From the NCBI RefSeq assembly GCF_000002075.1, contig NW_004797287.1, forward strand, positions 907,900 to 971,899: a DNA stretch of 64,000 nucleotides, read 5' to 3'. Under the pieces are notes generated by a model that searched no databases, was not told where the DNA came from, and saw nothing but the letters and a program-made list of their open reading frames with translations. Both the position numbers and the translations under genes were made by a program. Position 1 is the stretch's first letter. Each line of letters begins with the position of its first letter. The stretch is from Aplysia californica. Lineage: Eukaryota. Shown one piece after another: positions 13,103 to 59,176 of this stretch.

Positions 13103-13425
13103 TTTGTTTTAGTAGAGGTTTTACGGCGCTATCAGTTTGCCATTCATCGATTTGACCCTGATTCCTTTGTTCATTATTAAGGAGAGCGCCCTATTGCGCA
13201 CACGCTTTGTTTACACATTAAATTTGACCATTGGAAGGATTTGACGAAGAGTTGTTTTGACTAAGCATGATTATCCCTTCCAACTTGGACTAAAATTGAT
13301 GCTTTTTTCTATTGGCGTTTTGCCCCCGCCCCCCCCCCCCCCCCCAATCAACCCAGTTTAAATTATTTGAGAGGCGGGCTTTGTCCCTGTCTGCCAGGGC
13401 AGACTCGGTTTGAAAGGGATACGAT
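13103..13425 (-). mobile_element. 3' part of a family-C SINE interrupted by the Gypsy element (5' part at 18365-18480)
   Basis: Joining 18365-18412 to 13362-13425 restores the family-C sequence seen at 5943-6035; tail GCGCCGTAAAACCTCTACTAAAAC at 13106-13129 on the minus strand; B-box-like GAGTTTGATTCC at ~18416-18427. Confidence 0.55.
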
Positions 13426-13547
13426 TGTTGTGTTTACCTCAAGTCCAGATCCGGAACCGGAAGTCTCGCTCACCTTCTTCCTTGGGTCCCCTCGGGTTGC
13501 CAAATTGTCCGTTTGACGTTAGGTGCCAAAGTACACATAATACTATA
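13426..13547 (-). repeat. 3' LTR (122 bp)
   Basis: Matches 18267-18364 with 8 mismatches over 98 bp; immediately preceded (minus strand) by the PPT. Confidence 0.9.
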
Positions 13548-13558
13548 TCTCCCTCCCT
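13548..13558 (-). promoter_or_regulatory. Polypurine tract AGGGAGGGAGA
   Basis: All-purine run directly abutting the 3' LTR on the minus strand. Confidence 0.85.
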
Positions 13559-13772
13559 AAAGTAGTGGTGTCCCTTCATTAAAACTCTCAATATTTGTCT
13601 AGTACCAATGAAATGTAAATCTGGATCTAGATCTATACACTTTGCAAACTGTCTTGTTTGCGCAATAACTCAAAGGCGAAGAGGAAATAAAAGTAGAACG
13701 AAAATGAAAATAAATGTTCAAAGACAAGACTCAACTGCTGTGAGTTGTCCTTATATCTCTCCCTGAGATGTT

Positions 13773-15304
<1,532 letters not shown>

Positions 15305-15503
15305 ATATGTCGGCCATCCAATGTCACAGTATTTGCAAACTTCAGCAATTTCCGCATCGACCTTTTGGTGGAGGATTATTTCTGCAATTCTGCTTGAGGT
15401 TGCTGGAAGTGAGTTAAAGACTTGCTCCTCCGTGGCTTGAACTTCTTCATGAAAATAAATGTTTGCTAAATTGGAGTCACTTGACGGAGCTCTTGAAAGA
15501 GTG

Positions 15504-16672
15504 TCAGCTGTGATCTGGCTTTTTCCAGAGACGAATAACTTCTGGGTTGAATCGGGTAAGTCGAAGGCGGAATCTCAGAATGCGCGGTGGGAGCTTGGAG
15601 GGATCTTTAGACATAAGAAGGGCAACGAGGGGCTTGTGGTCCGTTTCAATAGTATACTTCATACCTTGTATATATTCACTGAATCTTTCGGAAGACCCGG
15701 TGGCTGCCAATGCTTCTTTTTCGATCACTGCGTACCGCTTCTCAGCCTCCGTCATAGTGCGAGATATGTAACTCACAGGCTTTCTGGAACCATCAGTTTG
15801 GAATTGAACAAGGACAGCTCCTAATCCTCCTTTCGGTGCGTCGGCTGCAATTATGGTTTCCAGTTTTGGGGAGTAGTGTGCTAGCACCGGGGTGGTTGTG
15901 AGGTGTTCTTTAATAGTTTTGAAGGCATTTACCTGTGGTTGTTCCCATATCCATTCATTTTCCTTGTTGAGGAGCGAGCGTAGAGGGTCTGTTATTGGTG
16001 CTATTCCTGAAGTGAATTTCGTCATCTGATTGACCATGACAAGGAACCTTTGCAGGCCTAGAACATCTTGTGGTTGCGGAAACTCAATGATGGCTTTGAC
16101 TTTATCTGGGTCGGCATTGATGCCGGAAGCGTCAATGATGTGTCCGAGAAATTTTAGTGAGGACTTGGAAAAAGAAAACTTTTCATTCAAAGAGAGGCCT
16201 GCGTCTTGGAGACATATCATCACCTCTCATACTCGTTTGTCGTGAGTGTCTTTGTCTGGGGCATGTATGGTAATGTCGTCGATTTGACATACTGTGCCAT
16301 CTTGCTCACGAAGAATCTCTGCCATTGTGCGCTGGGAGACCTCTGATGCTGATGAAATCCCAAAGGGTAGCCTATTCATGTAGAATCGGCCAAATGGAGT
16401 CAGAAGGTAGTGTACTTTCGCAATTCCTCTGATAGCGGAATTTGCCAGAAACCCGATTGTGCATCCAGTTTTGTGAAAAATTTACTGCCTGCGAACTGTG
16501 CAAGGTCTTCCTCTACGGACCTCAAAGGATGGACTTCTCGTTTGACAGCTTTGTTGAGAGCTGTTAAGTCGACACATATGCGAATCGAACCGTCTTGTTT
16601 AGGGACGACTACCATTCCTGCACACCAGTCTGTGGGGTCTGTTACCTTTGAAATTACACCTTGATCCAACAT
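15504..16672 (-). pseudogene. Gypsy reverse transcriptase and RNase H (frameshifted)
   Basis: RICVDLTALNKAV, KLDAQSGFWQIPL, LPFGI, QIDDI catalytic motif (~16272-16286), KFLGHII, ADA..GLGAVL, YAVIEKEALA, ETDHKPL. Confidence 0.93.
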
Positions 16673-16860
16673 CTATTCTAGCTGGGTTTTTTACCTTAGG
16701 CAAGAGGGGGTGGGCTATTTTCTTAGGTGTGTAAATGTGCGATGGCTCTATGTTTTCATGCAGTTTGATGGTGTAAGGTTTTTTCAACTTGCCCAGACCT
16801 GAGAAAAGTTTGGGGAATTGTAGCTTGAAATCTGGCTTCGGTTCTTCAAGTACTTGTACT

Positions 16861-18099
16861 CTAGTGACTAATCCCAACTTGACACATGCATCGCAGCCCA
16901 GGAGCGAGTGCTGTTGTTCTTTCACAACATACATTTTCTCTCTTGTCTTTGTGACTCAAGGTCTTTGTTGTGTAGCCTAGAACAGTCAAGTTTTGTCCTC
17001 CCGCAACACGGAGTAGTTTGTCTGGTCGTTTAAGTTCATTGGGGGCAACATTGATGTCTTTTTCACCCCTAACTGTAACTGAAGCACCAGTGTCCAACTT
17101 GAAAGGGTGTAGACGTCCGTCTACCTGGATCCCAACTGTCCAGTCGCTATCGTCTGTGAGTTGGTACACTTGTCCAAGAAACGCATAAGGAGGTTTATCT
17201 TCTGAGCCAAGATGCAAATCCAAGTTGAACTGCACCTCAGCCACCTGTTTGGACTTGGGCTCTAATCTCTCTGAGGCATGTTCAGTCCCTGAGCGACAAA
17301 CCTTTTGGTAATGTCCGAGTTTGTTGCAGGTGTTGCAACGTGCTGTACGAGCTGGACATTGAGTCCGTGGGTGGTTGGAATAGCCACAAAATCGGAAGGA
17401 TGAAGTGAGCTTACTAGGTACGTGTTGGTGTTGAGATTGCGTTTGTGCACTGGGATAGGGGTGCTGAGGGTTACGATTCGTAAAATGTCTTTGGTTTTGG
17501 TTCCATTTCACTGCCTCTACGTCTGCTGTCATGGAGTCTTGAAGGACTTTGCCCTGGGTTGCGGCGTCCTCTGTAGAACGGTAGATATCTATACACTTTT
17601 CCAGTGTGAGTTGCCTTTCCTTTAGTAAGTCTGTGTGAGCCTGTTGGGCTTCAATGCCCGTGACAATTTTGTCTCGTATCAATGAGTCTCTGCAATCATT
17701 GCAGCTTTTAGCAAGTCGTCTAAGATCTGCCAGGAATGTGTCGAAGGTTTTTCCGTGCGTTTGGTTTCTCTTATTGAATTTGAAACGTTCGTAATTTTCA
17801 TTTTGTTCGCCTATGACTAACTCATCGAATTTTTGTATAATTTCTTGAAGTGAGCGGTCGTTTTCACCTGTAGTGAATTTGAACCCATTGTGGATTCGGA
17901 GTGCTTCGTCGTCCAAGCTATGGAGAAAGAGTGCAACTTGGAACCTTTGATCTAAGTTTTCTAGACGTGAGAGGAGGACATATGTATTCCATCTCTGCTT
18001 GAATAACTTCCAGTTTACTACTGGATTAGACCCCAGGACCAGTTTGTCCGGTGGTTTGATACCTGCAATGATCGGTTTCGTGGTCTCCGCTTCGGCCAT
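16861..18099 (-). pseudogene. Gypsy gag plus aspartic protease
   Basis: 412-aa ORF with NWKLFKQRW, ERFKFNKRNQ, IRDKIVTGI, CCHC knuckles (FCGYSNHPRTQC, CNTCNKLGHYQKVC) and protease FKLDTGASV. Confidence 0.92.
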
Positions 18100-18251
18100 C
18101 TCAGGGCTAGATCTAGATCACAGTTTACACACAAATTACCTGACTTATTAAACAATAAATGTTCCGTCCTTCAAAATATCCATAGATCTTTATTTTGTCC
18201 AGATGTTGCTCGATATGTATAGATTGACATTGATTGTGGGTTCTTAGAGTA

Positions 18252-18264
18252 ACCGCTGCCGCCA
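18252..18264 (-). promoter_or_regulatory. Primer-binding site, tRNA-Leu type (TGGCGGCAGCGGT)
   Basis: Directly follows the 5' LTR terminal CA; one mismatch to TGGTGGCAGCGGT, the complement of the tRNA-Leu 3' end. Confidence 0.8.
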
Positions 18265-18364
18265 TGTCCGGAACCGGAAGTCTCGCTCGCCTACTTCCGT
18301 GGGTCCCCTCGAGTTGCCAAGTTGTCTGTTCGACGTTAGGTGCCAAAGTACACATAATACTACA
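18265..18364 (-). repeat. 5' LTR (100 bp)
   Basis: TGTAGT...GGACA; homologous to the 3' LTR but 22 bp shorter at the U5 end. Confidence 0.9.
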
Positions 18365-19132
18365 ACGATGTCCTAGCAGAAAGACCGAGAAACGGGATGA
18401 AAATTCTCCCCCTTTTGGAATCAAACTCAAGTCCTCTGGTTGCAACGGCAAAGAGACTGACTTATACACCTCAAACTCTAGTAATCTTATTTAGCATGAG
18501 AGCATGAGTAAAGAAAGCACAAGATGAAGATGAACCCATAAACATGACATCTAAGTACAACATGCACAAACAAATGGACAATTAGCCGTGAAATAGAGAA
18601 AAAGAGATAGTTGAAAAAAGAAAACACCAAGTAGTAAATACTGATGATGATAATGGAAAAATGACTTTCCCTTTGAGGTAAGAGAAGCATGAAGCACTTT
18701 GAAAAACAATGGCCATAATAGAGCAGATGAAAAGTAAGACAGGTAGCAGACAGAAATTGCAGTGGGAAGAAAAGAAGGACCCTCAAGAGGCGCCCAACAA
18801 ACACCCACGATGAAAAGAATAAAAACGAATACCTTACCAATAAAACGTACAACGAAAATGACCAGTAAGATGGATTCCACACTATAAATTTATTAAATCT
18901 AATATGCATATTATATTATTTCAGCTTGATGCACAAAAGGAGATTGAGTCGTTTCAATATTGTACAAAAAATAATGGAAGCTCCCATGCAGTTCAAAGAA
19001 AAGGCACATAAAAAAGATTAAGATAGTCCAAATATTACAGAAATTCAGTTTTTCTAACTCTTGAAATGTTATTTAAACGGACAGAAACGCATTGGCAGTT
19101 CAATCTGTGTATACATATATTTAATACGAGTT

Positions 19133-20768
19133 CCAAAGGGTCAACAGCGTGGGGTTGGAGCAAAGTCAAGATACAAGTTCGAATAGGTCAACAGCGTGGG
19201 ATTGGAACTGAGTGAAGATGGGGTTAGAGCTAATTCAAGATATGATTTCTACAGAGTCACCAACGTGGGGTTGGATCTAAGTCAAAATACAGGTTCTTAA
19301 GGGTCAATAACGTGGGGTTGGAACTAAGTCAAGATACAAGTCCTAAAACGTCAGCAATGTGGGGTTGGAGCTAAGTCAGAATAATAATAGATAATAATAA
19401 TGTAGATCATTTCTATGGTGCCCACTCCCGTGTGAACAAAGCTCTGGGTGCTTTACATAAATGCAAGTACGAACAATAGTCATGCACGCGCACGCGCACG
19501 CGCACACACATACACACACACACGCTAAACACACACGCGCGCGCACGCACACGCACGCATTCACACGCGCACACACGTATGCCAAACACACACACATACA
19601 CACACACACACACACATACACACACACACACACACATACACACACACACACACTTACTTGCTTATCTCACGCGCACGCCTTCACATCGTTACGAAATGAA
19701 AGTATACAAATACATAAAATAATATCCACATCGCAGTTCGGAAAATACATTAAAGGATACGTAGTGATTTACATAACATTGTACTGAACATGAAACTACT
19801 GACATAAAAATGATATGTCTTTAAATATGTTTAAAGTTAAGACTCGGATGTTGTATGTCTAATTGTTGTAAACCTTTTCGATGAACTCTTTAAAGATGCT
19901 GATCACCTAATCTTAGTGATCTACGTGGGATATAAATCGGGATGAGATCACTAAGATATGAGACAGGGAGCTTTGTTATTGGCACATTCATGAAATAATA
20001 TTGGAATTTATTACGTGTTCTAAAAGGTGAATAAAGTAGGGTTGGGATGAAGTCTATCCATGAATTCTAAAGGATCAACAATGTGGGTTTGAACTAAATC
20101 AAGATACAAATTCTAAAGGGTCAACAATGTGGGGTTGGAGCTAAGGGCTTATAACTTTGGGTTGGAACTAAGTCAAAATATATGGGTTCTAAAGGGTCAA
20201 TAACATGGGTTTGGAGCTACGTCAATACATGGGTTCTAAGGCGTCAACAATGTGGGGTTGGGGCTAAGTCAAAATGCAACTTATAAAGGGCTAATTACGT
20301 GGGGTTGGAGCTAAGTCCAAATATTTCGATTCTATAGGGTGAATAACGTGGGTTTGTAGCCAAGTCAATATACATGTGGTTCTAAAGGGTCAACAATGTG
20401 GGGTTGGAGCTAAGTCAAAATATATGGGTTCCAAAGGGTGAAAAACGTGGGTTTGGAGCTAAGTCAATACTTGGGTTCTAATGGGTCAACAACGTGGGGT
20501 TGGAGCTAAGTCAGAATAATAATAATGTAGAGCATTTCTATAGTGCCCACTCCTTTGTGAACAAAGCTCTAGGCGCTTTACATAAATGCATGTACGAACA
20601 ATATAGTCATGCACGCGCACACACATACACACACATACATACACACACACACACATAAACGCTAAACACACACGCTAAACACACACGCTAAACACACACG
20701 CTAAACACACACGCTGAACACACACGCTGAACACACACGTGCACGTACACGCACTCACACACGCACGC

Positions 20769-20859
<91 letters not shown>

Positions 20860-21942
20860 TTACTTGCATATCTCACGCGCATGCCTTCACATCGCTACGA
20901 AATGAGCGTATACAAATGCATAAAATAATATACACATCTCAATTCGCAAAATACATTAAAGGATACATAGTGATTTAGATAAAATTGTACTGAACATGAA
21001 ACTACTGACATGAAAATGATATGTCTTTAAATATATTTTAAGTTAAGACTCGGATGTTGTATGTCTAATTTGTTTTAAACCTTTTGGATGAACTCTTTAA
21101 AGATACTGATCGCTTAATCTTAGTGATCTACGTGGGACATAAATCTGAATGAGATCACTAAGATATGAGACAGGGAGCTTTGTTATTGGCACATTTATAA
21201 CATAATAATTGCTATTTTATATGTGTTCTAAAGGGTGAATAAAGTGGGGTTGGGATGAAGTCTATCAATGGATTCTAAACGATCAACAACCTGAGTTTGA
21301 ACTAAGTCAAGATACAAGTTCTAAAGGGTCAACAATTATGGGGTGGGAGCTAAGGGCTTATAACGTTGGGTTGGAACTAATTCAAAATATACGGGTTCTA
21401 AAGAGTCAATAACATGGGTTTGGAGCTACGTCAATACATGGGTTCTAAGGGGTCAACAATGTGGGGATGGGGCTAAGTCAAAATACAACTTTTAAAGGGC
21501 TAATTACGTGGGATTGGAACTAAAACAAGATACAAGTTCTAAAGGGTCAACAATGTGGGGTTGGAGCTAAGTCAAAATATATGGGTTCTAAAGGGTGAAA
21601 AACGTGGGTTTGGAGCTAAGTCAATACATGGGTTCTAAGACGTCAACAATGTGGGGTTGGGGCTAAGTCAAAATACAACTTTTAAAGGGCTAATTACGTG
21701 GGATTGGAACTAAGTCAAAATATATGGGTTCTAAAGGGTGAATAACGTGGGTTTGGAGCTAAGTCAATATTTGGGTTCTAATGGGTCAACAACGTGGGGT
21801 TGGAGCTAAGTCAGAATAATAATAAATAATAATAATGTAGATCATTTCTATAGTGCCCACTCCTGTGTGAACAAAGCTCTAGGCGCTTTACATAAATGCA
21901 TGTACGAACAATAGTCATGCACACGCACACACACACACGCAC

Positions 21943-22003
<61 letters not shown>

Positions 22004-23758
22004 ACACACGTTAAACACACACGCTGAACACACGTGCGCACGCCCACGCACTCACATGCACTCACACACGCATGCCATACACACACGCACACTCAAACCT
22101 TTACTTGCTTATCTCAAGCGCACGCCTTCACATCGCTACGAAATGAGCGTATACAAATGCATAAAATAATATACACATCCCAATTCGCAAAACATATTAA
22201 ATGATACATAGTGATTTAGATAACATTGTACTGAACATGATACTGACATGAATATTATATGTCTTTAAATATATTATTTAAAAGTTATGACTCGGATGTT
22301 GTATGTCTAATTTGTTTTAAACCTTTTGGATGAGCTCTTTAAAGATACTGATCGCTTAATCGTAGTAATCTACGTAGGACATACATCTGGATGAGATCAC
22401 TAAGATGGAGCTTTGTTATTGGCACATTTATGACATATTGCAATTTTATACGTGTTCTAAAGGGTGAATAAAGTGGGGTTGGGATGAAGTCTATCCATGG
22501 ATTCTAAAGGATCAACAATGTGGGTTTGAACTAAGTCAAGATACAAGTTCTAAAGGGTCAACAATGGGGGGTGGGAGCTAAGGGCTTATAACGTTGTGTT
22601 GGAACTAAGTCAAAATATATGGGTTATAAAGAGTCAATAACATGGGTTTGGAGCTACGTCAATACATGGGTTCTAAGGGGTCAACAATGTGGGGTTGGGG
22701 CTAAGTCAAAATACAACTTTTAAAGGACTAATTACGTGGGGTTGGTGCTAAGTCAAAATATGGGTTCTAAAGGGTGAATAACGTGGGTTTGGAGCTAAGT
22801 CAATACATGTGGTTCTAAAGGGTCAACAACGTGGGGTTGGAACTAAGTCAATATACACGTTATAAAGGATCAACAATGTAGGATTGGAGCTAAGGGCTAA
22901 TAGCGTTGGGTTGAAACTAAGTCAAAATATATGGGTTCTAAAGGGTGAAAAACGTGGGTTTGGAGCTAGGTCAATACATGTGGTTCTAAAGGGTCAACAA
23001 TGTGTGGTGGGAGCTAAGTCAGAATAATAATTAATAATAAAAATGTAGATCATTTCTATAGTGCCCACTCCTGTGTGAACAAAACTCTAAGTACTTAACA
23101 TAAATGCATGTACGAACAATAGTCATGCACGGGCACACAAATACACACACGCATAAACGCTAAACACACACGCTAAACGCTAAGGGCTTATAACGTTGGG
23201 TTGGAACTAAGTCAAAATATACGGGTTCTAAAGAATCAATAACATGGGTTTGGAGCTACGTCAATACATGGGTTCTAAGGGGTCAACAACGTGGGGTTTG
23301 GGCTAAGTCAAAATACAACTTTTAAAGGGCTTATTACGTGGGGTTGAAGCTAAGTCAAAATATATGGGTTCTAAAAGGGTGAATAACGTGGGTTTGGAGC
23401 TAAGTCAATACATATGTTATAATGGGCCAACAACGTTGGGTTGGAGCTAAGTCAGAATAATAATAGTAATAATTTAGATCATTTCTATAGTGCCCACTCC
23501 TGTGTGAACAAAACTCTAAGTACTTAACATAAATGCATGTACGAACAATAGTCATGCACGCGCACACAAATACACACGCATAAACGCTAAACACACACGC
23601 TAAACACACACGCTAAACACGCACGCTAAACACGCACGCTAAACACGCACGCTAAACACGCACGCTAAACACGCACACGCACGCACACGCACGCACTCAC
23701 ACGCACTCACACGCTCACACACGCTCTCACACGCGCACACACGCGCACACACTCATGC

Positions 23759-23803
<45 letters not shown>

Positions 23804-24549
23804 ACTTGCTTATCTCACGCGCACGCCTTCACATCGATACAAAATAAGCGTATACAAATACATAAAATAATATACACATCGCAGTTCCCAAAATACATCA
23901 AAGTATACGTAGTGATTTACATAACATTGTACTGAACATGAAACTACTGACATAGGAATGATATTATGTCTTTAAATGTATTTAAAGTTAAGACTCCGAT
24001 GGTGTTTGTCTAAATTGTTTTAAACCTTTTCGATGAACTCAAGATGCTGATCGCCTAATCTTAGTGATGTACGTGGGATGAGATCACAAAGATATGAGAC
24101 AGGGAGCTTTGTTATTTGCACATTTATGACATAATATTGCAATTTTATGTGTGTTCTAAAGGGTGAATAAAGTGGGGTTGGGATGAAGTCTATCCATGGA
24201 TTCTAAAGGATCAACAACGTGAGTTTGGAACTAAGTCAAGATACAAGTTCTAAAGGGTCAACAATGTGGGGTGGGAGCTAAGGGCTTATAACGTTGTGTT
24301 GGAACTAAGTCAAAATATATGGGTTATAAAGGGTCAAATAAAGTGGGTATGGAGCTAAGTTAAGATACAAGTTCTAAATCGTCAACAATGTGGGGTAGCA
24401 GCTGAGTCAGAACAATAATAATATAGACCATTCATTTCTACGGTGCCCACTCCCGTGTGAAAACAGATCAAGGTTCTTTACATTGCATGTACGAACAATA
24501 TTCGCGCACGTGCACGCACGCACATGCACACACACACGCACACACACGC

Positions 24550-24585
<36 letters not shown>

Positions 24586-25175
24586 ACATACACATACACA
24601 ACACACAACACGCAAATGCCAAACATTTACTTTCTTATCGCACGCGCACGCCTACAAATCGTTACAAAATAAGCACATACAAATATATAAAATGATATAC
24701 ACAATGAAATTCGCAAAATACATTAATGGATACATAGTCATTCACACAACATTGTACTGAACTTGAATCTACTGACATAAAAATGATATGTCTTTGAAGA
24801 TATTTTAAATTTAGACTCAGATGTATGTCTCAAGTGTTGGGGAAGAGAGTTCTAAACTAATGGAGCATGGTGAGCAAACGATCTTTCAGGTTATTTTTTT
24901 ACCTCCTTTTCTAGGAACTCTTTAAAGAAATTGATCACCTAATCTTAGTGATCTCGGTGAACATAAATCTGGATGAAGTAACTAAGATATAAGGGAGGTT
25001 TGTTATTGACACATTTATGACGTAATATTGATGTGTATAAGGGTAAACAATTTGGGGTTGCAGCTAAGGTAATATACAACTTTTAAAGGGCTAATAACGT
25101 GAGGTTTGAAGTAAGTCAACATATAATTTCTAAAGGGCCAACAACAGGAGGTTGGATCGAAGTCAAGATATAAGT
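19133..25175. repeat. Hierarchical tandem repeat: 47-49 bp minisatellite blocks within ~1.0-1.3 kb higher-order units
   Basis: Monomer ~AAGGGTCAACAATGTGGGGTTGGAGCTAAGTCAAAATATATGGGTTCTA; the non-monomer part of each unit starts TCAGAA at 19376, 20511, 21811, 23019 (truncated), 23452, 24407. Confidence 0.92.
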
Positions 25176-25849
25176 GTTAATGCGTTAAGAAAGTATATTT
25201 GAAAAATTAGCCTTGAACGTGGCGCTCTGCTCCTGCAGATGGTCCTCCAGTCCTGCCGGCATTTCTAGGTCTTGGTACCGGTCCTCTGGTCCTCCAATCC
25301 TACAGGGTTTGTATGAGGTCCTAGTAATGAAAACGTGTCAAAGAAAATCCTCTGATAAACTTACAGTTCAATATAAAAGTATTCATTATGTAGGTAGTAC
25401 AGCGAAATTTAAGGTTGGTTACTAATACTAATACTATGACGAGTAAAGGTATTTTAGAGAAGTCTAAATGCTAAAATATTTAAAGCCAGACCCATCAGTG
25501 CAAATGTTCAAAATGTTCTTTAACATAAGATAACGAAACTGTAGATAGCAATGTTATGTACCGTTTTGATTTGAACCACATTAATCATAACAAATGTAAA
25601 TTCTTAAGTATCTTTCAGGACTTATAAATGGCAAGGGGCAGTTTTTGAGAAACACTTAAATGCAAAAACGAAATTTTCGGGCCCATCAAATTATTACTCT
25701 TTTACTTCAACTATACAAATCATTAGATACATAATGTCTTCTGTCAGTAAGACACATTTCAAAATCAATTACCTTCTCAAGCTATCCATCTTTCAATACT
25801 TCGGTTTTGCGGTTTTCCAGTCACGGTGATCCTACAGGCTATCCTGTCC

Positions 25850-26535
25850 CACTGGTAGTATCAGAACACCTACCACAGGATGGTCAAAAGCAAAAGAAAC
25901 AACTGGCAGTGTTTGTTTGATCCACTGTGATTACATTTTGCAACACCACTGATACATTTATGACAGGGCAACATCAACACGCTGCAAAGAACAATCCAGA
26001 ATACAAAAGTCACTTCAACATTCAAGGTGAAAATCAGCCAGAAGCTCTTCCCAGCCTATTCTACTCCTGCCATCCTATCCCCCTGAAAAGACTCAACCTA
26101 CCCCTGCTGCCCACTCACTATCCCCCCCCCCAAAAATAATTTTAAAAAAAAATTCTACACTGTTTCCCTCATATCCCTCCCGCCATGGCCATGGCAATAC
26201 TGTCTAACCTATCCTACTCTGAACCTAGTCTGTCCATCTAGGTCTCTATCAACCTATCTCTATAGGGCCACAGCAGTGTAGGTAGGAGTCTTTTAAAGGG
26301 GGAAGAGGGGGACAGAAGTAGAATTGGGTGGGAAGAGCTGCCTAATGATTTTGAGCTTGAGTGTTGGAAGGGAATTTTGCATGCTAGCTTGTTCTTTTCA
26401 GCTTGTTGGTGCTGCATTGCCATTACTGTTTCAATGATGCTGTAAAACGCATACTCAAAAATAGATCAAACAAACACTACTAGCTGTTTATTTGACCATC
26501 TACCTTCTGTGGTAGACTTACTGATAACACCAGTG
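25850..26535 (-). ncRNA. Long imperfect inverted repeat / hairpin copy 1 (arms ~25850-26112 and ~26265-26535)
   Basis: The reverse complement of the right arm aligns end-to-end with the left arm (e.g. AGTGTTTGTTTGATC / GATCAAACAAACACT; AGCTCTTCCCA / TGGGAAGAGCT; AAAAGACTC / GAGTCTTTT). The inverted repeat is certain; RNA function is inferred. Confidence 0.75.
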
Positions 26536-27692
26536 CCTTCTTGCCGAAAAGTACGATGAGCGACAGTAATCTGAGAAAGTAAATTCAAAATGAAATCAGT
26601 TTGAATTATTACATTTTGAGTTTAAGCACATTCATATTGGAGCATCTAAATTATTTGATACGTGATTATTTAAATGCAGCAGCACATTCTATTTACATAA
26701 TCTAAGTAGTAAAAAATGGTAGTATGTGACACGGGAAGGAATGTTTGCTGTTCAAGGAAAGGTATACACCCTACATTGTGTCCTTTTAATCATTTAAAAA
26801 TTGTGTTTCCAGTATTCCTATACTGATGTGAAAAGAAAGACATGACCATAAGAGGCTGAAAAATAAGTACAACCTTCAAATGACACTGAAGCAAACATCA
26901 ATTGTTTCCATTAGAATTACGACGATTACGAGCAACATTCGTTGGTTTATTTTCAGGAGCGATTANNNNNNNNNNNNNNNNNNNNNNNNNNNNNNNNNNN
27001 NNNNNNNNNNNNNNNNNNNNNNNNNNNNNNNNNNNNNNNNNNNNNNNNNNNNNNNNNNNNNNNNNNNNNNNNNNNNNNNNNNNNNNNNNNNNNNNNNNNN
27101 NNNNNNNNNNNNNNNNNNNNNNNNNNNNNNNNNNNNNNNNNNNNNNNNNNNNNNNNNNNNNNNNNNNNNNNNNNNNNNNNNNNNNNNNNNNNNNNNNNNN
27201 NNNNNNNNNNNNNNNNNNNNNNNNNNNNNNNNNNNNNNNNNNNNNNNNNNNNNNNNNNNNNNNNNNNNNNNNNNNNNNNNNNNNNNNNNNNNNNNNNNNN
27301 NNNNNNNNNNNNNNNNNNNNNNNNNNNNNNNNNNNNNNNNNNNNNNNNNNNNNNNNNNNNNNNNNNNNNNNNNNNNNNNNNNNNNNNNNNNNNNNNNNNN
27401 NNNNNNNNNNNNNNNNNNNNNNNNNNNNNNNNNNNNNNNNNNNNNNNNNNNNNNNNNNNNNNNNNNNNNNNNNNNNNNNNNNNNNNNNNNNNNNNNNNNN
27501 NNNNNNNNNNNNNNNNNNNNNNNNNNNNNNNNNNNNNNNNNNNNNNNNNNNNNNNNNNNNNNNNNNNNNNNNNNNNNNNNNNNNNNNNNNNNNNNNNNNN
27601 NNNNNNNNNNNNNNNNNNNNNNNNNNNNNNNNNNNNNNNNNNNNNNNNATTCGTATTTGCGGTAGTCCAGTCCAATAGGTGGTCATCTGTCC

Positions 27693-28394
27693 CACTGGTA
27701 GTATCAAAACACCTACCACAGGATGGTCAAAAGCCAAAGAAGCAGCCGGCAGTGTTCGTTTGATCCACTGAGTATACATTTTGTAAAACCACTAATACAA
27801 TTCTGACAGTGCAACACCAACACGCCGCAGAGAACAATCCAGTATACAAAAGTCACTTCAACACTCAAGTTGAAAATCAGCAAGCAGCTCTCCCCAGCAT
27901 ATTCTATTCCTGCCACCCCATTCCCCCTGAAAAGACTCAACCTACCCCTGCTGCCCACTCACTACCCCCCCCCCTACCCCCAAAAAATGAACAAAAGAAA
28001 AAAAATCGTACACTGCCCCCCTCATATCCCTCTCGCCATGGCCATGGCAAAACTGTCTACAAAATCCTACTCTGAACCTACCCTGTCCATCTAGCTCCCT
28101 ATCAACCTATCTCTACCTCTACAGGGCCACAGCAGAGTAGGTGGGAGTCTTTTAAAGGGGGAAGAGGGTGACAGAAGTAGAATTGGGTGGGAAGAGCTAC
28201 CTAATGATTTTGAGCTAGAGTGTTGGAAAGGAATTTTGCAAGCTAGCTTGTTCTTTGCAGCTTGTTGGTGCTTCACTGCCATTACTGTTTCAATGATGCT
28301 GTAAAACGTATACTCAAAAATGGATCAAACAAACACTACTAGCTGTTTATTTGACATTCTACCTTCCGTGGTAGACTTACTGATAACACCAGTG
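27693..28394 (-). ncRNA. Long inverted repeat / hairpin copy 2
   Basis: Same arms and loop as copy 1, CACTGG...CCAGTG ends. Confidence 0.75.
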
Positions 28395-29685
28395 CCTTCT
28401 TGCCGAAAAGTACGATGAGCGACAGTAATCTGAGAAAGTAAATTCAAAGTGAAATCAGATTGAATAATTAAATTTTGAGTTTAAGCACATTCATAATGGA
28501 GCATCTAAATTATTTGTTACTTGATTATTTAAATGCAGCAGCACATTCTATTTACATAATCTAAGTAGTAAAAAATGGTAGTATGTGACACGGGAAGGAA
28601 TGTTTGCTGTTCAAGGAAAGGTATACACCCTACATTGTGTCCTTTTAATCATTTAAAAATTGTGTTTCCAGTATTCCTATACTGATGTGAAAAGAAAGAC
28701 ATGACCATAAGAGGCTGAAAAATAAGTACAACCTTCAAATGACACTGAAGCAAACATCAATTGTTTCCATTAGAATTACGACGATTACGAGCAACATTCG
28801 TTGGTTTATTTTCAGGAGCGATTAGACGGGCCCAGTGGCAGTTTTGAGAGAAACCTATAGGTAAAAATTAAGCTTTCAGCTGACCTGGTATTGAGGTATT
28901 CTAATGTTTTTTTAAACGTCTAAATAGACCAAGACATCTGTCAAAGACAAATACCTTCCAGGGATGATCATCAGACAACATTTCTTGTTTTTTGATACAG
29001 TGGATATGGACAATCTTCTGGTCCTGAAGGCGATCAACCGGTGATGAAGGCAGTCTTGGTGATGAAAACAATGACGTGTCAAAGATTGATTGAGTATAAT
29101 GTGTAAAAGATTGATTGAGTGATTGAGTATGTGTTTTACGGCACTGTCAAAGAAAATCCAACATCTCGTTTTTTTATTTAGTATTATAGGATAAAACAAT
29201 TCTCTATACTGGTATCGATAAAGAAAAGAGAGGGAGTTTTTTTTACACTTTCATTAACACAATTTAGATCACTTAGGGTGTAGATTTCCGTCATTTTAAG
29301 TGGAACCCTATCTCATCGATGGATATTCTAATTTTATAGTCATTGTGAGTTAAATTATGTCCTAATAATTTTGGAACTAATGCTGATCATTATTCATCAC
29401 TTCTCGTTTCTTGACAGTCTCGATAGTAACAGTCCATTGTCGTTGGTCTATCGGTCCTCCAGTTCCACAGGCGGTCCCTCCAGAATCGTTTTGATGAAAG
29501 AAAAAATGAAATTCTCACGCACCAATGAATATTTTTTTCGTTAGTACAAAAATAAAATGTTATATAATTTCTTAATAAATCAGAGAGTAGAATTGCAAGA
29601 AATATTTCAAATTACCTACATAGGCTGCCCATCATTCATCAATTCGTATTTGCGGTAGTCCAGTTCAGTAGGTGGTCATCTGTCC

Positions 29686-55924: not shown

Positions 55925-58900
55925 CTCTCTCTCTCTCTCTCTCTTGCCCTTTTTAACTCCCAGTGGAGCACAGGCCATCAACAGCATTACTCCAGCGAAG
56001 CCTGTCCTGAGCATCCTTTTCTACCTGTTTCCATGATGTCCACGCTTTTTCAATTCTCGCTAGTACAGCTCGCCTCCATGTCTTCTTTGGTCTTCCCTTC
56101 TTACGTTTTCCATGTGGGTTCCACGTTAAAGCCTGCCTGATGATGCTTGTCGGGGGTCTCCTCAGGGTGTGTCCAATCCATTTCCATTTCTTCACCTGTA
56201 TGTCTTCCTTTACTGGCCTTTGACTTGTTGTTTCCCACAGTTGAGCATTACTGACTCGATTGTACCACTTAGATCTCCACTATCCTTCGTAGGCATCCAT
56301 TTACGAAGCTCCGCAGTTTCTTTGCTGATGATGCTGTGAGCCTCCATGTCTCTGAACCATACAGTAGAACAGTCTTCACGTTTGTTTTGAAGATCCTCTG
56401 CTTGGTGTTCATTCCCAGTTCCTTAGACATCAATATATTCCTGAGAATGATGAATGCTGCTCTTGCCTTTTGGATTCTGGCCTTGATGGCTTCGTCTCTT
56501 CCCCCTGCCTTGTTGATGACACTTCCTAGGTAGGTGAAGGATTCAACATCCGCCAATGGTGCCAGTGTGATAGGAACGTCGGATGCATTTGTTAGTTGAA
56601 CTTTCGTTTTATCCTCGTGAATATGGAGTCCAACACTATGGGAGGTCCTGGGGCGATCTGTTTTCTGTGGCATCAGGGCTCGACGGTGAGAAAGAAGTGC
56701 CAAGTCGTCGGCAAAGTCCAAGTCTTCCAACTGACTGGAAAGGGTCCATTGTATGCAACCGCGTTGTACCGATGTTGTCCGTCTCATTATCCAATCCACT
56801 GCTAATAAAAAGAGAAAAGGCGATAGCAGGCATCCCTGTCTCACTCCTAACTTCAAACGAGTCTATCCGCTGCCCTTCAAGTAAGACACTCAACTCATTC
56901 CCTCACACATCTTCTTGATCAATCTCACGAACTTGTCAGGTATTCCGTAGTGGGGCATGAGCTTCCATATTGAGTCCCTATCTAGGCTGTCAAAAGCTGT
57001 CTCGTAGTCAACAAAGTTAACGTAAAGAGAAGATTTCCACTTTGTGGACTGCTTCACTATTATCCTCAAAGTTGCAATCTGATCTGTACATGATCTCTTT
57101 TTACGAAATCCTGCCTGCTCCTCTCTTAGTTTTGCATCTACGGCTTCCTTCAGTCTTTCCGGTATGGTACGACTTAAAATCTTCCCAGGAAGGGACAGGA
57201 GCATGATTCCTCTGCAGTTTTTACACTCATGCAGGTCTCCTTTCTTGGGTAGTTTCACGAGCAATCCCTCTTTCCAACACTGTGGAAATTCTTCGCTGTC
57301 CCATACCTTGTCAACAATTCCATGAAAAATCCCTGCCGCAGTGTCGATATCCGCCTTGAGAACTTCTGGGGAAATTCCATCTGAGCCGGCTGCCTTGCCT
57401 GCTTTCTGGTGTCTTATCGCCTCCTTGATCTCCTCTAAACTAGGCTTTTCAGACTTTTCTTCACTCACCTCCAGATCAATCTCTGCAGGTGGGATGTCAA
57501 ACTGTTTTTCTGGCCTTGGTCTATTCAGTAGCTCTTTGAAATGCTCCTTCCAGCGTTCTGTCTGTTCGTCTGGATTTGTGAGAAGCTTTCCCTCTTTATC
57601 CTTAACTGGCACATCTGCGTTTTTGTATCTGCCTTCAAGTTTTTTGGTGGTTTCATACAGTCCTCTCATGGTTCCTGCCCCTGCTGCTTCCTCTGCCTCG
57701 CGCGCTATGTCATCTACATAGTTTCTTTAGTCTTTCCGTACGCTGACTTTTACCTTCTTCATTGCTTTGGTGTATTCTTCTTGGGCCTTTGCTTTGGCTG
57801 CTCTTGTCTTGTTCCTGTTTACCTGATCCTTTTTCTTTTTCCAGTCTTCTATCTTCCTCAGAGTGGTGGCCGATATCCATGGCTTGTGCTCACGTTTCCG
57901 TTTCCCCAGTACCTCTGGACACACAGTGGTCCAGCTTTCTTTTATTGCCTCCCATATTTCGTCCACGCTGCTATCCTCGCCTAGTATTTCCAACACTTGG
58001 AACCTGTTCTTGACCGCTACATTAAACTCCTCTCTTGACGATGGCTTTCTCAGAAATTCAACGTTGTACCGGTACCTATGATTATTGACAATTCACGGTC
58101 TTCGCTTTAGTTTTAGTCGGATTGTTGAAATGAGCAGATGATGGCCCGAAGCTACGTCTGCACCCCTGTAAGCTCTAACATCCCTTATTGGTCTCCTGAA
58201 TTTCTTGTTGACACATATGTGGTCAATCTGGTTTTCAGTTTGTTGGTCTGGCGACACCCATGTTGATTTGTGTATCTGTTTATGTGGGAAAAGAGTCCTT
58301 CCTATTATGAGCTCATTCGTTGCACATATTTCTGCAAATAGTTCTCCATTCTCGTTTCTGACTCCAAGTCCGTGTTTCCCCATGATTTCCTCAAAGCCTG
58401 CATTGTCACTGCCTACCTTAGCGTTGAAGTCTCCCATTAAATTCTAGATGTCCTTCCTTCTAACCTGATCAATAGTATTTTGTTGCATTTTGTAGAAAGT
58501 CTCTTTTACATCCTGGTCCTTATCATTGGTGGGGACATATCCCTGGATTACACAAAGGTTGATGTCTTTCTTTTGAGAATGGAATTCAGCTGATATTAGT
58601 CATGGGCCCTCTGCTTTCCATCCTATCAAAGCCCGCTTGGCGTGTGTTGATAACATAATACCTACTCCTTCTGTATGCTGCGAGTTTTTCTCCAGACGTC
58701 CAGACTAGAGAACTGTTTCCCCAGAAGCAAGTTGGCACTCCCCTGCATTCGTCCATCTCGTCTCACAGAGACCCAATATGTCCAATTGGTAGGCCTCCAT
58801 CTCTCTTGCAACCTGCAGTGCCTTCCCTGTCTCGTACATTGTACGAATATTCCAGGTGCCAAGTCTGGTGGTTCTTCTGGTCGACAGGAGGTTTCTCAGC

Positions 58901-59176
58901 TTGGTGGCTTCCTTTCGGCTTTCACCACCCTGCGTCATTCTACACTCTATATTCTCTCCTCTCCTCGGTGATGAACGTCCTCCATCTTCCAGAACTGGCG
59001 GTCGTGTGGTTTTTACTGTGGATGTTTTTGTAGCTGCTTTTCGTTTTACTGGAAAGGACTGCTAACCCTTTGCCCGACCGACCTTAGTCGCCTTCTACGA
59101 CATGCGCGGTGCGGATACAGTGATCCAATTCTTTGCTCCCCTGTCTCTTGGACAGGGCCCCGAGAACCACACGGGT
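55925..59176 (-). mobile_element. Apparently full-length (~3.25 kb) RTE-clade LINE, ORF broken by frameshifts/stops
   Basis: APE endonuclease (GTWNIRT, GLCETRW, MGDFNAKVG, NQIDHI), RT (QAGFRK.RSCTDQI, GVRQGCLLSP, DFADD, FTYLGS), WKWIGHTLR..GRPK; (GA)n tail; candidate TSD CTGTGAG(C/T)CTCT at 55913-55924 and 59177-59188. Confidence 0.95.

Follow-up and report, generated by a model that had tools for sequence, protein, structure and literature searches.

The arms of a fold-back sequence of about 690 bases, dozens of copies of which are found across the genome of Aplysia californica, carry an excess of mismatches that form G:U pairs on one strand. This one-strand wobble bias is real and family-wide, and it is older and weaker than the count in a single copy had suggested. 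It favours the minus strand, on which splice-like GT/AG motifs are located, as stated in the sequence-only reading of this DNA. We consider weak selection on an RNA duplex, within a mostly non-coding, spliced and amplified unit of about 16 kb, to have about an even chance of being the cause. The amplified hairpin family is apparently undescribed so far: we found no published description of it, and published sea-hare small-RNA data may already include its reads.

The window, by which we refer to the entire stretch of 64,000 nucleotides analysed here (contig NW_004797287.1, positions 907,900 to 971,899), contains several members of this family on its minus strand. In copy 1, the 5' arm (26271..26535) is an inverted duplicate of the 3' arm (25850..26109), both are 74% complementary and they enclose a G-rich loop (26110..26270). 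The 3' arm has a 73% identical homolog in a second subfamily, termed B, where it is found without a long partner arm. Copy 2 extends over 27693..28394 and copy 3, whose loop is partly unreadable, over 29686..30500. Copy 4 (32598..32830) is the 3' arm of a first-cassette lineage, termed A0, with a partner arm that is unreadable in the window. A short segment within the 3' arm of copy 1 (25905-25950) resembles the tail of a SINE.

In a global alignment of the arms of copy 1, repeated under four scoring schemes, we find 20-23 G:U pairs on the minus strand compared to 6-7 of the A:C type (binomial p 0.004-0.009). In the same alignments, 197-198 positions form Watson-Crick pairs and 28-32 are mismatched by a transversion. 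The formal alignment thus upholds the excess of about 21 over about 6 that had previously been counted by hand. A similar preference is observed in copy 2, with 29-30 G:U pairs on the minus strand and 8 on the plus strand, and in copy 3, with 29-30 and 6-8 pairs, respectively. The copies in the window are not independent, because most of the G:U pairs of copy 1 are consensus pairs: 18 out of 24 are already contained in the family consensus, and the changes that are private to this copy are divided into 6 G:U and 6 A:C. The proposal that the arms have drifted mainly through wobble-tolerated changes goes too far, since G:U accounts for only 19 of the 39 mismatches in the consensus and transversions account for 15.

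The folding energy of copy 1 is –315.9 kcal/mol for the minus strand and –267.4 kcal/mol for the plus strand. The comparison of both strands, which had been suggested as a check, hence favours the minus strand by 48 kcal/mol; because the z-scores obtained from shuffled sequences are equal (–13.65 and –13.63), the gap restates the G/U skew, contributes no extra evidence and was rejected as independent support. The minus strand folds better in 23 of 23 copies with RNA energies and in 12 of 12 copies with DNA energies. The assumption that an inverted repeat acting only as DNA would show no polarity therefore does not hold, as a single exposed DNA strand would also favour G:T.

To place copy 1 in the context of its family, we aligned 69 hairpins from 34 contigs, excluding eight copies with N in the hairpin core. 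The resulting consensus of 243 pairs contains 204 Watson-Crick, 19 G:U, 5 A:C and 15 other pairs (p=0.0066), where the 19:5 excess retains p=0.013 when compared to a 55:45 null. With 204 + 19 of its 243 consensus pairs, the sequence is a long inverted repeat that is able to form an extended duplex. G:U outnumbers A:C in 65 of 69 copies, and the wobble bias of copy 1 is mostly inherited from the family ancestor. With subfamily B as outgroup, 10 wobble-making changes are assigned to the 5' arm and 8 to the 3' arm. Ancestral changes were polarised on five consensus arms from four arm lineages, with each change counted once. Among these fixed changes, C>U strongly exceeds G>A (20 vs 4, p=0.0015), with A>G and U>C at 7 and 6. 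When independent fixed mismatches are pooled over three stems, G:U outnumbers A:C by 33 to 13-14 (p=0.005-0.008).

The partner arm of lineage A0 was recovered in 10 of 15 paralogs, with the window copy included in the count and the upstream sequence being unreadable in the remaining five. Copy 4 was rejected as an unpaired control, as A0 forms a hairpin in its paralogs. The suggestion that the copy-4 arm keeps pairing states is correct insofar as it exhibits the 5'-arm state at 7 of 19 G:U and 5 of 5 A:C positions, but it belongs to a sister lineage instead of representing the ancestral state. The A0 consensus shows a G:U to A:C relation of 14:9 if left untrimmed (p=0.40) and of 13:5 after removal of its ragged inner end, with 22-24 fixed transversion mismatches in A0 and 15 in A1. 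In a comparison of A0 with A1, both members of a pair differ in a single case only, and compensatory pairs are almost absent.

While subfamily A is defined by the long hairpin, subfamily B shares the loop core and the 3' side and contains a short stem only, with arms of A and B being 73% identical. In the 18-bp stem of subfamily B, 177 G:U cells face 6 A:C cells in 42 copies, numbers that trace back to about four inherited pairs. Units of subfamily B are younger, being about 84-96% identical over long stretches, and carry three core modules each. They display nine or more exon-intron-like repeats, and their short G:U-rich stem is located between words resembling C and D boxes. The assignment of these words, which was made by eye, found no support in Rfam. 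In the third cassette of subfamily B, an antisense LINE-like fragment is located just upstream.

Changes that postdate the family ancestor were counted as tree-parsimony events, whose numbers may be inflated by recombination among copies, and p-values are nominal and refer to single tests. The comparison with flanking sequence is based on the 48 of 69 copies with a homologous upstream flank, leaving out at least 12 copies where this flank is non-homologous. In this set, the upstream flank is symmetric with respect to A>G (111 events at 108 sites) and T>C (133/123) and to C>T (147/55) and G>A (121/52). A like asymmetry in the flanking duplicated sequence, which had been named as evidence for a mutational instead of a structural origin, was thus looked for in the upstream flank and is not found there. 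At paired sites of the stem, A>G events in A:U pairs (130/117) exceed U>C events (81/116) with p=0.0009 (paired test p=0.011), and the ratio of A>G to U>C in the stem relative to the flank is elevated by a factor of 1.67 (CI 1.09-2.59, 48 copies). The excess of A>G recurs in later changes of lineage A0 (34/114 vs 22/134 for U>C, p=0.031). Conversely, recent C>U events in the stem (162/87) are not preferred over G>A (145/87, p=0.36), which counts against the RNA-duplex reading because selection for pairing predicts C>U to exceed G>A. Five further sets of duplicated sequence without a pairing partner were compared: in four of them, G:U-making changes are not significantly in excess, and in the fifth C>T exceeds G>A by a factor of 1.36 in cells that are non-independent. 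Subfamily B, employed as unpaired control at low power, displays no asymmetry (A>G 22/58 vs T>C 28/90).

The divergence amounts to 0.114 in the arms, 0.176 in the flank and 0.106 in the loop. Taking the flank as reference, rates are lowered to about 0.65-0.72 for U>C, C>U, G>A and transversions, and A>G remains at about 1.08. Reversions to Watson-Crick pairs occur at 2.1 times the expected value for A:C and 1.5 times for G:U pairs. Double changes of stem pairs on the same branch number 31 vs 20.6 expected (P=0.019), and those ending in a Watson-Crick pair 14 vs 8.8 and 13 vs 9.8 expected (P=0.056 and 0.16). We found no tracts of arm-to-arm correction by conversion (9 vs 6.0 expected, P=0.12) and no hyper-edited copies among 53 (heterogeneity p=0.28). 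In the sequence context informative of editing, A>G is not depleted after a 5' G (1.72 events per site vs 1.06-1.80 for other neighbours).

The loop, whose conservation is on par with the arms, shares the excess of A>G over U>C with the stem (site-level p=0.012). It contains a core of about 95 nt (about 26168-26258) with six UAGG words, which is nearly the same in subfamilies A and B, with a few bases of difference. A perfect 14-nt palindrome (26182..26195) is located on the axis of the inverted repeat, inside the best-conserved 20-nt window of the hairpin. In the genome, we count 239 exact matches of the central 21-mer and 260 matches of a loop 22-mer with at most one mismatch, compared to 71 for a 20-mer of the 5' arm and 52 for a promoter-like 25-mer. 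The core, of which the genome contains at least 260 copies, may be the actual functional element, and it includes putative GATA-, YY1- and RFX-like words. We found no consensus fold for the loop and no match of the core motif in metagenome contigs. Of the matches listed for Rfam 15, none of 8 and none of 4 attained the gathering score of the respective family.

Nearly the whole hairpin of copy 1 coincides with a predicted intron of 652 nt on the minus strand (25870..26521), delimited by the donor GTAAGT at 26521 and by an AG acceptor with its last base at 25870, which are located opposite to each other at the base of the stem. The predicted intron is preceded by an exon-like piece of 49 nt (26522..26570), whose acceptor AG is kept in 64 of 68 copies, and followed by a second piece (25773..25869), which is 97 nt long in this copy and usually 100 or 104 nt, and in which stop codons interrupt every frame in 46 of 64 copies. 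The splice dinucleotides, four in total, are retained in 64/68, 62/68, 67/69 and 63/69 copies (91-97%), whereas background AG and GT show medians of 0.84-0.87, in a comparison that was chosen post hoc after the sites had been looked at. Their retention supports the notion that minus-strand splicing would have taken place at some time. Relative to subfamily B, both splice sites have improved by changes in one internal loop, which are largely common to A0 and A1. An alternative donor at 26503 was discarded, as it is kept in 58 of 68 copies and hence at background level only.

Of 64 copies, 16 are open across both exon-like pieces, so that an open frame is not kept through the exons, and no protein match was found for another exon-like piece. 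In the downstream piece, the second codon position is least variable in one frame (p=0.085), and the piece is open in 18 of 64 copies; it may be the remnant of an exon that encoded a repetitive protein. Three poly(A) libraries, whose tissue is not specified, yielded 3, 1 and 0 partial reads, none of them 95% alike, in a search that did not include a control stretch and hence does not argue for silence of the locus. Further upstream, a putative promoter-like region on the minus strand (33894..33985), which is common to subfamilies A and B, combines what we take to be a CCAAT word (33975-33985) and an initiator-like word (33894-33907).

The hairpins reside in a host unit of about 16 kb on the minus strand (18365..34195) that is common to other loci. 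Its homology extends upstream to at least 37182 in two loci and resumes beyond an inserted LTR element near 13270-13449. In aligned loci, hairpins are arranged in tandem within the unit, which extends from near a CCAAT- and initiator-like motif to terminal minisatellite arrays. In the window, units of about 1.2 kb that include a 47-nt minisatellite as well as (TG)n tracts form an array at the 3' side of the host unit (19123..25162, minus strand). Gaps, microsatellites and inserted repeats adjoin the ragged ends of the host unit. Inspection of the aligned loci by eye revealed no clean ends, no terminal repeats and no target duplication, and six loci scanned for an element-encoded ORF contain none apart from inserted LINE frames. 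Among the best 40 of 401 candidates scored in a genome search with the hairpin, nearly all are full length, and the best 40 of 459 candidates scored with the arm as query, a search that also covered potential targets, are all members of the family, with subfamily B carrying the arm at 73% identity.

The host unit is a mosaic of repeat pieces, an organization that is often found in sources of piRNAs. A Ty3/Gypsy-like LTR element with broken gag-pol frames on the minus strand, recognized by eye at 13450-18362, is inserted in the 3' end of the unit, and its LTRs (13450-13545 and 18267-18362) are 93% identical. Its integrase region contains, in antisense orientation, an intronless fragment of a PKC-delta kinase (14363-14827, plus strand) that is 97% identical to the Aplysia californica protein and likely a captured retrocopy. 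Broken reverse-transcriptase and endonuclease frames of LINEs are found on the minus strand at 40112-41034 and 55953-59061, and another A-type unit hosts a near-intact LINE with frames of 503 and 1008 residues and a triplicated 3' end.

We regard weak selection on an RNA duplex as the best reading of our data. It is supported by the same one-strand preference in three stems, symmetric flanks, the kept splice dinucleotides, the lower divergence of the arms compared to the flank and the more frequent reversion of A:C than of G:U pairs. It is opposed, as an account by pairing selection alone, by a recent bias that is confined to A>G, the bias of the loop and the scarcity of compensatory pairs. 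The fixed transversion mismatches, the non-significant A0 consensus before trimming, the one unpaired set with more C>T than G>A and the missing 20-nt conservation peak likewise count against it. In the proposed sequence of events, an old inverted duplication would have occurred within an amplified and mostly non-coding repeat unit, whose minus-strand transcription would be driven by the promoter-like motif near 33900. The arms of this transcript would pair as an RNA duplex of about 245 bp, and weak selection would spare G:U-compatible changes more than those that break pairs. Splicing at 26521 and 25870 would then free the hairpin as an intron with a 5' tail of 6 nt. The most likely use of the freed duplex, although rather improbable by itself, would be its processing into small RNAs by which transcripts of the same family, sharing the arm sequence, are reduced. 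A virus survey of a gastropod, the dog-whelk, found no canonical viral small RNAs of the Dicer type (PMC6085071), which weighs against this proposal.

The main rival, which we regard as possible, if on balance unlikely, is strand-biased mutation or repair without selection, where a G-rich non-template strand that is exposed in the course of transcription would fold or deaminate and G:T would escape correction more often than A:C. One uniform factor (0.65-0.72 of the flank) combined with the A>G excess (about 1.08) fits the observed rates, and this process explains the biased loop and the uniform fall better than selection does. In yeast, the correction of inverted repeats with imperfect arms has been linked to transcription (PMC3820800). 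The same process is challenged by the symmetric flanks of the same predicted transcript and the absence of arm-to-arm correction tracts (9 vs 6.0 expected, P=0.12), and a single process would not obviously yield an old bias in C>U and a recent one in A>G. The restriction of the recent asymmetry to A>G and to the hairpin region would also be expected if A-to-I editing of an RNA duplex were written into DNA via reverse transcription. We find this scarcely probable, given that A>G is not depleted after a 5' G, no copies are hyper-edited (p=0.28, 53 copies) and fixed wobbles are mostly C>U.

Pairing might also take place in single-stranded DNA, for instance in a rolling-circle or strand-displacement intermediate of the mobile unit that tolerates G:T and employs the palindromic core as recognition site. 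The better fold of the minus strand with DNA energies (12 of 12 copies), the dispersal of the unit with introns and upstream sequence intact and a core that is near-invariant across subfamilies would agree with such an intermediate. This explanation appears very unlikely in view of aligned loci without terminal repeats, target duplication or clean ends, the lack of an element-encoded ORF in six loci and the presence of several hairpins per unit that are all internal. Finally, the bias could have arisen by chance in a few ancestral lineages and been amplified by copying, as it is mostly inherited and the A0 consensus by itself is non-significant. The pooled mismatches of three stems (33 vs 13-14, p=0.005-0.008) and later independent changes in the same direction in both A1 and A0 render chance very improbable.

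Non-autonomous DNA elements of the MITE, foldback or Helentron/DINE-1 type are dispersed and non-coding and contain minisatellites, microsatellites and palindromes. The sea-hare unit resembles them in each of these properties and differs in that its inverted repeats are internal and multiple, that no terminal repeats or target duplication were seen and that it keeps promoter-like and splice-like motifs. The hairpin also differs from mirtrons, with a stem of about 245 bp and a loop of 160 nt, compared to which pre-miRNAs are far shorter, and without a single conserved 22-nt product. The predicted intron of 652 nt is not a hairpin of pre-miRNA size, and a 20-nt peak of conservation was sought along the arms and is absent. 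Like in mirtrons and 5'-tailed mirtrons (PMC4556696), splice sites set the ends of the hairpin, which is here a prediction; as in the tailed type, the stem ends at the acceptor on its 3' side and would retain a short 5' tail.

A further resemblance concerns hpRNA loci of Drosophila that give rise to endo-siRNAs, such as hp-tHMG of D. simulans with a solo locus and a cluster of 13 copies (PMC10317233, PMC12553114). Such loci consist of inverted repeats of a few hundred bp that originated from local duplication, with unpaired paralogs of the arm nearby, and of units that are spliced (predicted in our case), tandemly amplified and dispersed. Unlike these loci, the sea-hare family, which is known from sequence alone and resides in a mollusc, comprises about 70 or more long hairpins on at least 34 contigs, no protein-coding target was found for it and its hairpin coincides with a predicted intron. 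On the basis of folding statistics, expressed and structurally stable inverted duplicates of mammals have likewise been interpreted as functional hairpins of the non-coding type; in the accessible portion of that study, folding energy was used instead of a strand test of G:U vs A:C, and large hairpins were argued to be disfavoured (PMC5398296).

Molluscs are said to have no miRNA hairpins of very great length and to answer double-stranded RNA with apoptosis (PMC12553114). The family is of interest for the question of whether long endogenous hairpins are processed into small RNAs in molluscs. We consider it unlikely that spliced non-coding genes with giant-hairpin introns feed a small-RNA pathway against the hairpin-less sister subfamily; if true, this would constitute a mirtron-like route to hairpin siRNAs and an instance of genomic conflict outside insects. 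If instead biased mutation or repair accounts for the pattern, the family would clearly exemplify a strand bias in mutation that is limited to a hairpin. In this family, one long duplex is naturally replicated dozens of times, and its strand was assigned from sequence alone.
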